Below, one piece after another: positions 43,399 through 63,300 of a stretch of 64,000 nt of DNA. Position numbers and translations under genes: made by a program. The notes beneath the pieces were generated by a model, which was not told the origin of the DNA, searched no databases, and was given only the letters and a program-made list of their open reading frames with translations. Source of the stretch: Macrostomum lignano (Eukaryota); contig NIVC01002140.1 in the NCBI GenBank assembly GCA_002269645.1, positions 62,001 through 126,000 of the forward strand. Direction: 5' to 3'. Numbering within the stretch: position 1 is the stretch's first letter; each line of letters begins with the position of its first letter.

Positions 43399-45645
43399 CG
43401 GATCCCTGTCTGCAGAATTGATTCAAAAATGAGCACATTTTGAGACGATGTTGTAGTTTTTTTATTCTTTTTAAAATCCAGCTGGTTTAGAGAGCTGTCG
43501 TTACGTGAGGGATTGATTGGTTTACCTGAGCAGGGGGCTGTTTGTGAGTTAAGGACTGTCTCTGAGTTGGAGGGGCTGTCTGCCTTGTAACTGGGATATC
43601 CTTTCCCAGTAAAATCAGGCCAGGTATTGCTGAGAGAAGCAATGTGCAGAAACATGAGAACTTAATTCACAATTAAAGTAGCAATGTCGAAGCGAATTCT
43701 GGCAAGCTCACCAACTGTGATGGCGATTCGATGCTGAAGAATTTTTAAGCCACAATCTTAAAACAGTTGAAAGCTTGCCCTTTTAGCGCAATACGAGCCT
43801 CAGTGCTTGCTGCTGTATAGACTCATGAAATTCATTTCTTTGTCTGTCACGAGAAGCAGGCTGACGGGCCGGGAGTGCTATATAAAAGTGGAATTCAGAA
43901 ATATTTTGAATCTTGGACGCTCTCAAAAAACGAAAAATATAACAACCTCTACCCGCCTAAACCACAGCTATCCAGACAGACCAGCTCTAGACCAGTCAAC
44001 TTCAATGCCCAAAGGACAATAACGAAGCTGAGGTTTGAGGGCCAAGCCAGCAGTTTTTGGATGTGAGCCTCACACTCATAATAGGGCCTTTAGATGCCAG
44101 TGTGTTTTAAACCTTTCTTTTACATAAGTAGAAGATAGCAGGACAATAAAACCTGATATAAACCTATCCACCCCAATAACTGAAGCTCCCTTTCTCGAAC
44201 ATGCACTGCGTCATACTGTAGCGTTGTTTATGCACTTATGCGCTTATTTTGCATTCTAAAAAAAGGATACTTTGTATTTTTGCATTTTTATTATCTCGTA
44301 TTTTATTCTATTCTCCCATTAATTTTTGCATATACATAGGATACGCGATGCAGGTTCGATTATGCTGCAATCGTCACTCTCACGGCGAAACTAGTGTTAA
44401 CCAGTGCAGATGCAGTATAGCAGTCTAACTCCTCTTCCGTTCCTGGTTTTACATCTAGCTCGTAGTACTGTGGCTTATCAAAGTTACCCTTTTTGCCTGG
44501 CGCACTCGCGCTCTACTTATTTATTTTTCTTTGCTAAAGACGAAGTTCATCAGGTTGAACTCGAACTGGAACACGCCACGTCTCTTGTTGAAGATGGCCA
44601 TACTTTTGGATAAGCCTTAAGTGTTTTACTTGCTTTCTCAACTGCTGCAATAACGTACGTGAACTTTGGCTGTACGTACATAACTAATAATAGCGTTTTA
44701 GCCAACCAGACCGAGAGAAGAAAAAGAAAGCTCAGGGGTGACGGCGAGACGCGAGTGAGCTTTAAATGAATTTCATAGTGTCACGGCAAGGACAGGAGTG
44801 CCATCGCAGCAGTTTAATCACAAGGGAACAATACCATGGCTGCCATAACAGGGGTGCCATCACTGGGTGCCATCACAGGGGTTACCATTCTAGGTGTGCC
44901 ATTCCAGGGGTGCCATTACAGGAGCGCCATCCCAGATGCGCCTTTTTAGAGTCGCCTTTCTCAGGGGCACCATGCCAGGGCGCCTGCTCCCGGGCACTAA
45001 AACTGCTAAACAGAGGCGGCCAGTTTCTGCCAGTACTAAAAGGTGGACGCTACATCGTCATCCATAGGGGCTAAAGCTGGTGCAGCATGTGCTTGACACA
45101 TCTTTTCGAACCAGCCAGACACCTTTCCGTCAGGGGGTCGCGTCGTGCTCGTTCTGCAGCCACTTACTCTCGAACGGCAGCAGTACAAGAATCTGGAGGT
45201 TGTCAGCTCTGGCTGCCAGGTGAGCAGCCGTGTCGCCAGCCCGGTCAGTAGAAGGCATGAGGGGGCTTTTGGGACAAAATTTTTCACGTCCTCCATAATC
45301 CTTTTAAATCCATCCATATTATCCCCGACAGAATCAGAAAAAAAGGGGGGTCGCACTCGCTCACAAAACGTCCTCCATAATCCCATTAAATCCATCCATA
45401 TTATCCCTGACAGAATCATAGCAGGTGTCCACTGATACCTGTTATGCTCACTGTGGACACCTGCTATGCTCACTGACACAGACATCATCCACCGACATCC
45501 ACCCATAGCATCTTCGAAACAATCAGAAAATAATCTGCATTCTTCTCCCCACATTCAATTCGCAACATGCTACCAGATCCCTAAGACTTTAAATCATCAG
45601 CGCAGGGTCCTCACCCTTTGAAAAAAAATTAAATTCTCAATAAAA

Positions 45646-45888
45646 ATGTTTCCAGTCGTCTCTCCAGGTTCTTATTACAAAGAGCACGAGCCTAATTACA
45701 AATCCAAGTACCGATGCAAACTTGAATGCAGCGAATACATGAGAAAATATTGGCCCGACGTTGATATCAATGTCCCTAATATTAATCTAGCTCTCCAAAG
45801 ACACTGGTTTCATAAGTATGGAGTAACCTACGTAAAAGATTACGACAGCTACTATAACTTTGCAGAAATCATTAGGCAGTTGCGTTAA
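45646..45888 (+). CDS. 80-aa TIR-embedded ORF (left arm)
   Basis: Homolog of 27727-27969. Confidence 0.6.
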   Translation: MFPVVSPGSYYKEHEPNYKSKYRCKLECSEYMRKYWPDVDINVPNINLALQRHWFHKYGVTYVKDYDSYYNFAEIIRQLR

Positions 45889-45897
45889 AAAACCGAA

Positions 45898-60073: not shown

Positions 60074-60316
60074 TTAACGCAACTGCCTAATGATTTCTGC
60101 AAAGTTATAGTAGCTGTCGTAATCTTTTACGTAGGTTACTCCATACTTATGAAACCAGTGTCTTTGGAGAGCTAGATTAATATTAGGGACATTGATATCA
60201 ACGTCGGGCCAATATTTTCTCATGTATTCGCTGCATTCAAGTTTGCATCGGTACTTGGATTTGTAATTAGGCTCGTGCTCTTTGTAATAAGAACCTGGAG
60301 AGACGACTGGAAACAT
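60074..60316 (-). CDS. 80-aa TIR-embedded ORF (right arm)
   Basis: Identical translation to 45646-45888. Confidence 0.6.
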   Translation of the reverse strand: MFPVVSPGSYYKEHEPNYKSKYRCKLECSEYMRKYWPDVDINVPNINLALQRHWFHKYGVTYVKDYDSYYNFAEIIRQLR

Positions 60317-63300
60317 TTTTATTGAGAATTTAATTTTTTTTCAAAGGGTGAGGACCCTGCGCTGATGATTTAAAGTCTTAGGGATCTGGTAGCATGTTGC
60401 GAATTGAATGTGGGGAGAAGAATGCAGATTATTTTCTGATTGTTTCGAAGATGCTATGGGTGGATGTCGGTGGATGATGTCTGTGTCAGTGAGCATAGCA
60501 GGTGTCCACAGTGAGCATAACAGGTATCAGTGGACACCTGCTATGATTCTGTCAGAGATAATATGGATGGATTTAATGGGATTATGAAGGACGTTTTGTG
60601 AGCGAGTGCGACCCCCCTTTTTTTCTGATTCTGTCGGGGATAATATGGATGGATTTAAAAGGATTATGGAGGACGTGAAAAATTTTGTCCCAAAAGCCCC
60701 CTCATGCCTTCTACTCCGGTCAGTTGCAAAAGGGTCAAAGTTCTGAGCAAGTAAGTACAGTACGCACTTTTCTGTTCCGGCCGATTTCTGCTGAGGAGCA
60801 GTATCGGCCAAACGCATGAGGACAGTCTTCTTCTTACTTGCTTTCAATAAGTGCACTATTATCTGTTTTCACCTTTTTCACCTTTGTTGTCGGTGGCTCC
60901 GACTAGAAAATAGCTCAACTGTCAATTTTGTTCTGCAGATGATAACCAGAATTCAGTGAATTTCTCACCAATTTCAAGTGTGTAGCCTTCATCGACATAA
61001 GTATCCAATGAAAATGTTTTTACCTAAAGCTCAATTCATTATTTTCTTTCATATTTCAAATATTAATACTAACACTTATGAAATTTCACACGATTTTCGA
61101 CTTGGATTTTTGCCAATACTCAGGTAATTTTGGTGTGGTGAGTTCACTGATATTTGATTCACTAGACGGCCCGTACCGTTCCTAAAGTCCTCGTCCGCGT
61201 GTTTGGCATCGTTTTTACAGGTGCTGTTGTTAAAGGAATTGTTGTAAAATATGAGGTCCAACGAAGTGTTTAAAAGCTGAATTAAGATGATTAAGATGAT
61301 CCATTATCGCTGCAGAGGAACTGAGTAGCCGATACAGCGAGAAACAGCAGTGATTGGTCATCAACTAATCTGCTAAGTAAGGCTGGTGTTCCAGAAGCTG
61401 CTGAGCTCCTGCCTTGCTTGCAGTTCGGATAACCAGAACGACTTGAATGCCTCCGTGGAGACATCCACCATCTGCAGGTCCAGAATCAGCTGCTGCTTGG
61501 TCTTAGAATCAAGAAAGTCGCCGGAATTCGAATATTTCATTCCAAAAAGCTGATCGAGTTCCGGAGCAGTGGTGCAGTTCACAGCCCTACGAGCGTAGAC
61601 TTCTTTGTTCCTTCCAATCTGGAAATACTGAATTTTATGTTATCCAACAAATTGTTAGTGCTGCCAGCAACAAAGACATTAAAACGCGAACTTGGCACAG
61701 AAACGAAGCAGGCCTCCGTCAATAAAAAATGTGTTTCGAACTTCAATCTATATTTGGCTTAAAGCAGACATAACACGAGAAAAAAAAGAAGAAAAAAATT
61801 CAGGGCGAGAAGGCAAAGTGAGCCGCCAGTAAAGCGCGACGGGGGTTTAAAAGCACCCCCTGCCACCCAAAGGGGGGGCAGGCGGCGATGTACAATCAAC
61901 GCGCTGGACACTAAAGCCGGTTTGTGCGCTTGCACAGCACAAACCAGTCCATTCATACTGCTGGTTGAACATAAGGCTGGCAAAGTTCAGGTCCGTCTCA
62001 GTAACGTACTTTCACGTGCTCAAACATCTTATTTACATGTAGGGGTCATACTATAAAGCTGTCGTAGCGTAAGTTCGATCGTACGTCGGAACTTTTACAC
62101 TGCGGAGATGGGAGCTAAGAGCAATCTTATCTTACGATAGTTTTATAGAACGGGCCCGTACTCTTTTAAATTTATCGTCTCAAAGACAGTTGCTTCTGTC
62201 TTTTCAGCACAGCGGGACCCACAAAATACATAGATCGAGGCAGTTCTCAGATTTTGAAAAGTTTCAGCGAAGATTTTCAGATAGAAAAAAGCCTTGAACA
62301 CTTTCAAACCAGTCTAGCAAATTCAGAAACAGCGCGGCCGCCTGATCCTGGAGATGAAAATTTCAGCGCAAGAAAGTGTCGTTTAGAATTGCAAAGTTAA
62401 TTATTTTGATCTGTGTTCTCTCCTGGTGCAAAAACTCAGGTGGGTCAAGTCGAGTTTCATTCGAGTCGCCTTGCAGAGCAGAGCGCTGACGAACTTCGGC
62501 CAATAGAAAAAGCCTCAGTCTGGTTGCTGCACCAATTCGCTGAGATTCTGAATCCCCGAAACGAAAAGGGCGAGCTGCGTTTTGGATACTCGTGGCGACT
62601 GCGGTACCGGATGGGGGGCCACAGTCGCGAGTCCAAGCGTTATAGTTGTCAGTTGAAGACAACAGGAATGTTGCGATGTGGACAGTCTGGCTCACGTTCA
62701 GCTAAACAGGCATCGAGTTGTTGTGCTCTGACGAACAATCCGCTGATCTACTAAGCCAACTTTTTAGAAATTTCAATAATGAAGGACTCGTCTGTCATTA
62801 AGTCTAACTTTGCAAATATTTCTCTTATTTTGTATTTGCATTTGGAGCGGTCACAAAAATTAAAAAGTTGAAGTTGAGTTCACCAAACTGTTTGAAGCTG
62901 TTTCCCCCTCTGACAGTAAACATGGTATTGACGCCAGTTTTAACAAACTGTCGCAAGAAAATTCTCCATCTGCAGATGCCCGTCTCATCGCTCAACGCTG
63001 CACAGTTGCTCCAGCAGTTCAGCAAGCGCCGGTCGGAAGTAATGCCTTTAAAATGAATGCTTAACCGCCTCTGTTCTAGCTGTTTGCTTCAATTTGCGTC
63101 CTGCAGCTCTGGTACAGCTCACTCGTGAAGGCCGACAAAGAGTCCATAAATGAGCTGCTTGAGTTGCCCTCAGCTTGCTCGTCAGAGAGCAGCTCATGTA
63201 GCCGCTGCACCACAGTGCCGAAGCTCTGCTGCAGTTAGGCTGTTGGATCCTTGAGATTGCTGCAGCTCAGGGTTGTTCAAGCTATCGTATACTTAAAGCT

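Follow-up and report, generated by a model that had tools for sequence, protein, structure and literature searches.

Polinton/Maverick elements carry AG-initial terminal inverted repeats, and copy-back defective viral genomes arise and multiply during virus replication. The terminal repeats of Polintons vary widely and sometimes include whole genes, the origin of which is not explained in the portions of the literature that we consulted. In butterfly Polintons, repeats of about 2 kb hold hexon and adenain twice, and PolB-less copies carry LINE or gypsy cargo (bioRxiv 10.1101/2025.02.07.637071); the available part of that preprint gives no origin for the long repeats. The repeats of Galileo recruit internal sequence when a broken end is repaired using the other end as the template, and the longest ones belong to non-autonomous copies (PMC3573991). 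In the sections consulted, the same article mentions Polinton repeat expansion as reported, in one sentence. Endogenous mavirus-like elements of Cafeteria contain Ngaro inserts with an intergenic bias, and truncated elements have 'regenerated' terminal repeats (PMC8547959). Mu killer of maize is a transposon derivative in which one terminal repeat occurs twice, with an inverted duplication of adjacent genes (PMC3440606).

The Macrostomum lignano locus described here shares with adintovirus-like Polintons/Mavericks the AG-initial terminal repeats, a 6-bp target site duplication (TSD), a double-jelly-roll capsid and a penton-like gene, but this copy lacks PolB and integrase, and its 6.2-kb repeat includes a host retrotransposon. 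Whereas Galileo gains hundreds of bp and has repeats of up to about 1.26 kb, the repeats reported here span 1.7-6.2 kb and contain whole genes. The butterfly elements are amplified; in contrast, each giant palindrome in our data occupies a single site and its junction is visible. The Cafeteria elements are protist virophages, and multi-kb palindromes are not described in the consulted part of that report. As in Mu killer, an inverted duplication of one transposon end together with adjacent genes is present. However, a hairpin RNA of about 4 kb and silencing are described for Mu killer, whereas for our locus such an RNA is a prediction. Copy-back genomes and poxvirus repeat expansion (PMC10230479) likewise involve the duplication of one end onto the opposite one, where the overwritten genes are lost; here, however, the product is chromosomal, confined to a single site and marked by a host-type repair scar. 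The consulted part of bioRxiv 10.64898/2026.10.13.758929 does not describe arm duplication. A literature search of titles and the beginnings of abstracts returned no multi-kb palindromic Polinton derivatives; most subscription papers lie outside its scope, and supplements may list long-repeat Polintons.

Results

The window, i.e. the whole 64,000-nucleotide stretch that was analysed (contig NIVC01002140.1, positions 62,001 to 126,000), contains in the assembly a mirror-image Polinton remnant of 15.5 kb, in which one 6.2-kb end is mirrored over the other end (Table 1). As predicted, the two arms are inverted copies (45247-51473 versus 60715-54490), with 99.90% identity over 6228 alignment columns. 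The original prediction also noted that they are not identical; its three substitutions stand (45375, 45406 and 51388), but the indels number three, not one (47194 and 51263 in G runs, 51433 in an A run). AGTAG is present at both termini (45247 and 60715), flanked on either side by CCGGTC. The flanks on either side adjoin each other directly, overlapping by exactly 6 bp, at 6 of the 7 paralogous flank loci that were inspected; the duplication is therefore genuine, and the expected pair of proper termini within one 6-bp TSD is borne out.

Family copies also have AG-initial repeats, ordinarily of about 0.3-0.9 kb, compared with 6.2 kb in this copy. Part of the 355-bp segment next to the terminal repeat matches sub-terminal DNA from the integrase-side end of other family copies. 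The right arm stands where family copies have about 9.5 kb with protease, PolB, pX, integrase and PLA2, and regions for all five are absent from 45247-60715. Thus, about 9.5 kb are lost from the right half at a single insertion site with a true 6-bp duplication. The anticipated spacer of about 3 kb, with an intact capsid gene and an ATPase remnant but without PolB or integrase, is likewise found: positions 51474-54489 comprise the last 46 bp of the left Ngaro, the capsid frame, the 3′ third of the ATPase and a cut-off ORF. An upstream Polinton remnant (22941-28392) was considered as the lost right half and rejected, because it possesses a terminus and a flank of its own and its repeat is 83% identical.

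Table 1. Features of the palindromic Polinton and its target site (positions in the window)
Feature	Position	Strand	Remarks
Left TSD copy, 6 bp	45241..45246	+	Single copy at 6/7 paralogous empty sites
Left arm, 6227 bp	45247..51473	+	Terminal repeat, penton, Ngaro up to 46 bp before the Ngaro end
Family terminal inverted repeat, 82-bp internal units	45247..45882	+	2/3 arm substitutions in first 160 bp
355-bp segment	45883..46236	+	Common to the two nearest family copies (C5227, C2789)
Penton (minor capsid)-like gene	46237..47104	-	Premature stop after ~215 codons in both arms
Complete Ngaro retrotransposon	47123..51519	+	A1, gag-like, RT, RNase H, tyrosine recombinase, B1-A2-B2
Double-jelly-roll major capsid gene, open, 428 aa	51526..52812	-	Pfam and fold comparison
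Family ORF without assigned role	52843..53693	+	Split by a stop, cut by 1.4-kb deletion
A32-type packaging ATPase, 3′ remnant	53694..53980	+	1.4-kb deletion
Family ORF, ~240 aa in other copies	53952..54469	+	Cut off at the junction
20-nt junction insert	54470..54489	+	11-nt copy and two 5-nt pieces
Right arm, 6226 bp	54490..60715	-	Inverted copy of left arm
Second Ngaro copy without last 46 bp	54490..58839	-	Points back into the spacer
Second penton-like copy, same stop	58858..59725	+	Mirror of left-arm copy
Right TSD copy, 6 bp	60716..60721	+	Single copy at 6/7 paralogous empty sites

The Polinton family comprises about 200 copies in this genome, with genes for PolB, rve integrase, A32 ATPase, C5 protease, pX and PLA2; in one copy Pfam detects Pox_A32 (E 7.5e-7) and Peptidase_C5 (E 1.6e-4). 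Because the definition of a Polinton requires a protein-primed PolB (PMC5499653), which is absent here, we file the element as a Polinton derivative, dead and non-autonomous, rather than a complete member. Its sole intact hallmark gene is the double-jelly-roll capsid. The match to PF21738 (DJR-like) has an E value of 6e-5, below the Pfam cut-off, and all 8 of 8 homologues carry PF21738. A structural model (pLDDT 53) matches the Sputnik capsid (Foldseek E 1.6e-9) and the faustovirus capsid (Z 11.4, rmsd 6.8, 276 aligned), and the predicted fold resembles virophage, NCLDV and PRD1 capsids. The capsid gene has nine private substitutions, six of them non-synonymous and three synonymous. The ATPase kept only its 3′ third after the deletion. 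The penton-like frame measures 287 aa in family copies; its name rests on gene position and an Atlas lead (look-alike 0.96, in a cluster where 18% of the members bear Adeno_Penton_B, recognition lying below the tool's mark), and a Pfam search gave zero matches.

The Ngaro is inserted between the penton and capsid genes. Its split direct repeats (A at 47122-47311 and 51195-51381, B at 51136-51196 and 51459-51519) follow the A1-ORFs-B1A2B2 layout of such elements (PMC8547959). Pfam detects RVT_1 (E 1.4e-17) and, below the cut-off, Phage_integrase (E 1.6e-5) and RT_RNaseH (E 0.053). The arms had been described as each including a whole Ngaro, which holds for the left copy, but the right one lacks its last 46 bp. 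The RT frame is shifted by a private 25-bp deletion, which none of the 12 Ngaro copies that could be compared carries. Just as foreseen, this frameshift and the penton stop are common to both arms, and both are private to this copy. Together with five private Ngaro substitutions in both arms they must predate the copying of the arm, "private" being measured against 25 Polinton and 20 Ngaro stretches only. Inside, a single substitution is arm-specific: at 51388, the base is derived in the left arm but not in the right. The right-arm alleles could not be explained as an inherited haplotype, as each was seen only twice among 42 stretches, in different copies.

A junction had been placed at 54470-54500; it is indeed there, more precisely as a 20-nt insert at 54470-54489. 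The longer piece is an exact copy of adjoining Ngaro sequence, whereas the two short ones have counterparts on the Polinton side as well as in the Ngaro end that was lost. An 11-nt templated length was reached by 21 of up to 20,000 random 20-mers from the window. Such a templated insert resembles those typical of host alternative end-joining. Since the junction cuts the Ngaro, 46 bp inside its end, the Ngaro was present before the junction formed. The Ngaro recombinase was rejected as junction maker, because the break lies 46 bp from the Ngaro end and not at the end. The search for the same junction at other loci, set beforehand as a test of mobility, gave an end-to-end match at this locus only (best 40 of 371 candidates). 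Neither the Ngaro-penton junction (best 40 of 300 candidates) nor the ATPase-deletion junction (best 40 of 147) was found at a donor locus. A homologous chromosome carrying an intact Polinton here was looked for without success; consequently, the state before the rearrangement was not seen. When Logan contigs of four runs were compared with 51474-61600, the matches listed included no piece across 54470, such contigs dropping rare variants, and showed family continuations at 53693 and 54469. At the private sites listed, these contigs have mostly family alleles only.

Four further independent palindromes occur in the family, one at a site assembled as C276, C1652 and C3945, the others at C633, C1584 and C975. 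Each has its own breakpoint and its own TSD, and one is built from the opposite arm (integrase/PolB arms, no capsid). At their junctions, we see either short microhomology, an insert of 2 nt or a piece of 235 bp that comes from another part of the element. None of the five palindromes was found at a second insertion site among the family places examined (about 199 of 214 with the penton marker and 100 of 224 with the PLA2 marker). C276, C1652 and C3945, which have the same marker spacing, were rejected as three insertions because they share both flanks and thus represent a single site. This palindrome was assembled three times, on separate contigs and with the same breakpoint; its spacer orientation varies between homologous copies, making loci of this type difficult to phase. 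Marker pairs that face each other at C273, C1098 and C3589, and likewise C33 and C1113, proved to be neighbouring or nested elements, and C957 (complex) and C2787 (partial sequence only) were left out of the counts. A shorter arm extension of about 0.5 kb, which spares PolB and integrase, has the same inner boundary at five loci, with different outer flanks in the four where a terminus was located. This shorter extension did spread, to five sites.

When the arm mismatches of the five palindromic sites are pooled, 19 of 32 substitutions fall in the outer 350 bp (19 in 1750 bp, versus 2 in 1750 bp for positions 351-700 and 11 in 19,604 bp inside). The enrichment has a binomial p of 7e-14, or 1e-5 without C975, the arms of which differ by 10 substitutions and several indels in the first 350 bp and by one substitution past 700 bp. 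The element in the window on its own has two of three substitutions in the outer part (p 0.002-0.035, depending on the bin). No such enrichment exists at the C276 site or in the shorter C869 extension. Among 14 other two-ended copies, the repeats do not match each other any better on the inside than on the outside. Copying that started within the old terminal repeat would leave mismatches mainly at the outside. However, the outer 350 bp are a tandem-repeat zone where mutation may be faster, and edge mismatches would likewise be expected if the arms of an older palindrome kept converting each other.

Discussion

The junction, donor and mismatch evidence favours the second of two routes originally proposed, namely that one arm overwrote the other after insertion. 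We consider it probable that the capsid-side arm was extended in place over the polymerase/integrase-side half by aborted gap repair, using the host's double-strand break repair. The same mechanism is described for Galileo terminal repeats (PMC3573991), and aborted SDSA closed by Pol theta is known from worms and flies (PMC8654963; PMC2895639). A normal Polinton of about 16 kb would have integrated and aged before a Ngaro entered between the penton and capsid genes and gathered mutations of its own. A break or gap may then have opened in the right half, through fork collapse or cleavage in trans by a Polinton integrase, whereupon the right-hand chromosome end would have paired, via its terminal repeat, with the left terminal repeat. 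Inward synthesis would have run for 6.2 kb across penton and Ngaro and stopped 46 bp before the Ngaro end. Lacking a homologous partner, the new end was presumably sealed to the opposite side of the break, at 54469, by polymerase-theta-type end-joining, from which the templated insert remains. Survival of the old right repeat in its outer part would account for the mismatches located there. Together, the templated insert and the unequal outer ends point to host repair, without naming the enzyme. A move of the Polinton after the Ngaro insertion would be possible in principle, since PolB-less butterfly Polintons with retroelements stay mobile (bioRxiv 10.1101/2025.02.07.637071).

The headline of the original prediction, a defective-interfering-like copy-back genome integrated in trans, did not pass the mobility test set for it. 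According to this scenario, a Ngaro-bearing Polinton was excised and copied by the protein-primed polymerase of a helper, a single template switch producing two capsid-side ends, and the helper integrase inserted the product here. Its form would fit: both ends have proper AGTAG termini within one TSD and derive from one parental end, although the right end may retain the original right repeat at its extremity. The C276 and C869 arms are free of outer substitutions, in line with a single switch; such a switch should yield identical ends, yet C975 has ten substitutions in its outer 350 bp. Integrase frames are open in 15 of 30 family stretches, yet a PolB frame of at least 1100 aa (a chosen threshold; assembly indels can break frames) was found in none of 31. 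Similarly, the extension sparing PolB and integrase did spread, and PolB-less butterfly Polintons carrying transposable elements amplify (bioRxiv 10.1101/2025.02.07.637071), whereas the palindrome and its four relatives are each restricted to a single place in this assembly, the best candidates included no donor carrying either the Ngaro or the ATPase deletion, and the junction insert looks like host end-joining. Both arm types occur; since a mirror type without capsid exists, the "capsid-only" content was not a selected design. We thus regard a copy-back origin as unlikely. The broader idea that the family makes copy-back genomes of either arm extrachromosomally and that these are inserted by a helper integrase, the five palindromes being fossils of active replication, seems to us equally improbable.

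Two copies of the locus in opposite orientation (sisters, or a sister and an excised copy) could also have undergone non-homologous exchange, with one crossover in the terminal repeat and one illegitimate join at 54469, following a model put forward for the expansion of poxvirus terminal repeats. The product would be identical, TSD and outer right repeat being kept, and mpox virus shows two-direction duplications with loss of overwritten genes (PMC10230479). We nevertheless think this quite improbable, as two separate chromosomal events would be needed and the templated insert speaks for synthesis at a free 3′ end; sequence alone does not separate such an exchange from break repair. Very unlikely, finally, is an assembly or library artefact, in which a fold-back chimera was joined to the true right end via the terminal repeat. 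The Logan matches, with the limits given above, and the variable spacer orientation at C276 would be compatible with it. However, the flanks join at empty paralogous sites, the 20-nt insert was found nowhere else among the best 40 of 371 candidates, copying the left arm with its derived base at 51388 would not yield the right arm, and the sister palindrome was assembled repeatedly with the same breakpoint.

Since four other sites show the same kind of rearrangement, in-place arm copying looks like a recurring accident rather than a spreading defective virus. One family displays its stages: small extensions into the penton gene, the roughly 0.5-kb extension at five sites and five multi-kb overwrites, which removed half the element and stayed put. 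This offers a testable route to gene-bearing repeats and to the capture of a host retroelement into both ends. Most likely, decay is all that is now happening at the locus. Transcription running through from either Ngaro is predicted to yield a long hairpin RNA. The palindromes are also obvious candidates for a source of hairpin RNA directed simultaneously at two mobile families; that they act as Mu-killer-like sources silencing the Polinton family of about 200 copies and the Ngaro family is conceivable, though doubtful.

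Structure of the palindromic element

When the window was compared with itself, the Polinton derivative at 45247–60715 appeared as a single inverted repeat of 6228 columns (45247–51473 against 60715–54490) with 99.90% identity. An alignment of the arms revealed six differences: three are substitutions (45375, 45406, 51388), and three are indels of a single base within runs (47194, 51263, 51433). Both element ends start with AGTAG and are bordered by CCGGTC. The original prediction of inverted 6.2-kb copies with AGTAG ends and a 6-bp target-site duplication (TSD) thus holds, except that it had one indel instead of three; of the whole Ngaro retrotransposon that it placed in each arm, only the left copy is whole, since the right-arm copy ends 46 bp before its true end. 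The host flank is a repeat with paralogous loci, and in six of the seven examined the left and right flanks are joined with a six-base overlap. Therefore, both ends derive from one integration event.

This Polinton family is large: a penton 24-mer has 214 exact matches in the genome, and a PLA2 24-mer has 224. Ordinary two-ended copies measure ~14–17 kb, with inverted repeats of ~0.3–0.9 kb and the gene order penton, capsid, ORF, ORF, A32 ATPase, two ORFs, C5 protease, PolB, pX, integrase, PLA2. In copies on contigs C1830, C5003, C1526, C3826 and C431, an 82-bp terminal-repeat unit forms long tandem arrays. Measured against one natural family copy, two stretches are missing from the window element, namely 1.4 kb around the start of the ATPase and ~9.5 kb beyond the ATPase up to the right repeat. 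C5227 and C2789, the closest relatives among the copies fetched, have a 355-bp segment in common with the element and contain neither the Ngaro nor the deletion. Its capsid frame is open (428 aa), and an alignment-based model (pLDDT 53) resembles virophage, NCLDV and PRD1 capsids. The nine private capsid substitutions (six non-synonymous, three synonymous), a small number, carry no sign of selection.

Order of events and junction

Compared with 25 Polinton and 20 Ngaro stretches, the window element has at most 17 private changes over 4158 Polinton columns, the terminal repeat excluded (0.41%), and at most six over 4397 Ngaro columns. Both arms carry five of the six Ngaro changes, the penton stop and a 25-bp RT deletion that is absent from all 12 comparable copies; the Ngaro change at 51388 is found in the left arm only. 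From the numbers of private changes and their distribution between the arms we infer the order and its spacing in time: the Polinton probably aged before the Ngaro inserted and aged in turn, and the duplication came last. Because the junction cuts the Ngaro, the latter is the older.

At 54470–54489 lie 20 bases that differ from both parents at this position. Among them are an exact 11-nt copy of neighbouring Ngaro sequence and two 5-nt pieces that each occur both immediately left of the break and in the part of the Ngaro end that was lost. Of up to 20,000 random 20-mers from the window, only 21 reached an 11-nt match to the junction flanks. Patchwork templated inserts, and duplications from an end-joined aborted SDSA strand, are described in the accessible text on worm (PMC8654963) and fly (PMC2895639) Pol theta products; by likeness only, the enzyme behind the window junction would be Pol theta.

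Further palindromes and repeat extensions

Facing marker pairs were sought at ~199 (counted by hand) of the 214 penton places and at 100 of the 224 PLA2 places, and those found were fetched. Besides the window element we found four single-element palindromes; every one has a TSD and a breakpoint of its own. That on C975 is of the mirror type: each of its arms carries PLA2, integrase, pX and part of PolB, and there are no capsid genes. The C276 element represents one site in three homologous contigs with identical flanks, which argues that such palindromes are real and inherited. The C633 and C975 junctions were unique in a genome search, and among the marker pairs listed none other had the spacing of C1584 or C276. 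At the joints of these four palindromes there is short microhomology, an insert of 2 nt, or 235 bp that come from another part of the element. Separate elements accounted for three penton pairs and two PLA2 loci; C957 and C2787 were left out of the counts.

Smaller extensions into penton measure 64, 175 and 287 bp. An extension of ~540 bp, penton gene sequence on the integrase-side end, has the same inner boundary at five loci (C869, C819, C2344, C714, C1330), all of which keep the PolB–integrase block. Extensions sparing this block can therefore spread; giant ones were not seen to. Among those with comparable ends, four have a capsid-side penton of another subfamily (~73–90%), which suggests recombination between subfamilies.

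Coordinates of features in the window and on other contigs
Feature	Position	Remarks
Ngaro	47123–51519	between penton and capsid
C276 palindrome	C276:289398–300645	arms 4.75 kb
same site	C1652:28604–39932	spacer flipped relative to flanks; flip-flop recombination between arms or mis-phasing
same site	C3945:57496–68440
C633 palindrome		arms 4.85 kb
C633 junction piece	C633:142547–142781	235 bp of capsid-gene start, pointing to a second template switch
C1584 palindrome		arms 1.75 kb
C975 palindrome	C975:122373–133902	arms 5.45 kb
Complex nested Polinton locus	C957:97839–116690	1.15-kb inverted repeat (99%) in PolB region, possibly another arm-copying event
Internal-deletion derivative, 3.7 kb	C827:105496–109162	both repeats, penton, part of capsid gene, 6-bp TSD
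Second family Polinton, right half	22941–28392	broken PolB, pX, integrase, PLA2, terminal repeat
Gypsy-type element	~20273–31100	surrounds the preceding remnant
5′-truncated Ngaro, same family	36241–37925	98.4% identity; A repeat at start
Inverted pair of 161-bp satellite arrays	12648–19810	18.7 and 8 copies; followed by a 19-bp array
Ubiquitin C-terminal hydrolase frame	16338–17195	between the arrays; Pfam UCH E 1e-10
Tandem paralogous genes	4953–8724, 38931–43530	stonustoxin-like helical, fibronectin type III and septin/AIG1-like GTPase domains

Origin of the palindrome

The arm differences of five sites were pooled, leaving out C1652 (a duplicate) and C869 (not a palindrome). The outermost 350 bp account for 19 substitutions (1.09%), the following 350 bp for two (0.11%) and the 19,604 bp further in for 11 (0.056%). 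This outer excess (p 7e-14; 1e-5 without C975) lies in a zone that is a tandem array. It is absent from C276; at C975 the two ends are strongly divergent over the first 350 bp, whereas past 700 bp there is a single substitution. Another 14 two-ended copies have an inner repeat that is mismatched as much as the outer part, or more. The ends would be identical after a single copy-back switch; copying begun inside the old repeat would leave the outer part unchanged. The C276 arms and the tandem-array nature of the outer zone speak against the latter, and later arm-to-arm conversion could produce the same pattern.

We consider it probable that the left arm was copied over the right half by in-place break repair. 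The proposed sequence starts with a break or gap that opened in the right half. Its own repeat would let the right-hand chromosome end pair with the left repeat, after which synthesis would copy the left arm inward and the released strand would be end-joined to the other broken end. The accessible text on Galileo repeat extension gives the same model (PMC3573991), at smaller scale than here. An exchange with two crossovers, of the kind modelled for poxviruses in the part of PMC10230479 available, is not separable from break repair by sequence, and we regard it as improbable. A copy-back genome integrated in trans, one of the two routes in the original prediction, is unlikely, if slightly less so: among the best 40 candidates scored per boundary, the junction matched end to end here only, and the Ngaro/penton and ATPase-deletion boundaries at no other locus; neither a second site nor a donor was seen in this assembly. 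That reading requires a lost donor and a helper; in its favour, PolB-less butterfly Polintons with retroelement cargo amplify, according to the accessible text of bioRxiv 10.1101/2025.02.07.637071. An assembly or library artefact is very unlikely.

Transposon repeat extension, gene-bearing Polinton repeats and terminal duplication in poxviruses are already known, as is, from the accessible part of PMC8547959, Ngaro inside virophage-like elements with regenerated repeats. In the literature searched we found no account of a single Polinton family that has repeatedly formed multi-kb palindromes from either arm, with repair scars still visible.

Possible function and surroundings

Most likely, the window element has no function. 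Since its two Ngaro copies face each other over the 3-kb spacer and the right one lacks its 3′ end, read-through would fold into a predicted hairpin with a stem of >4 kb. As far as the available text of PMC3440606 goes, Mu killer of maize has the layout predicted here.

Elsewhere in the window, the satellite arrays and the hydrolase frame may constitute one mobile element. The tandem paralogues look like innate-immunity genes, judging from their domains, and the Polinton is located in a repeated unit downstream of them.
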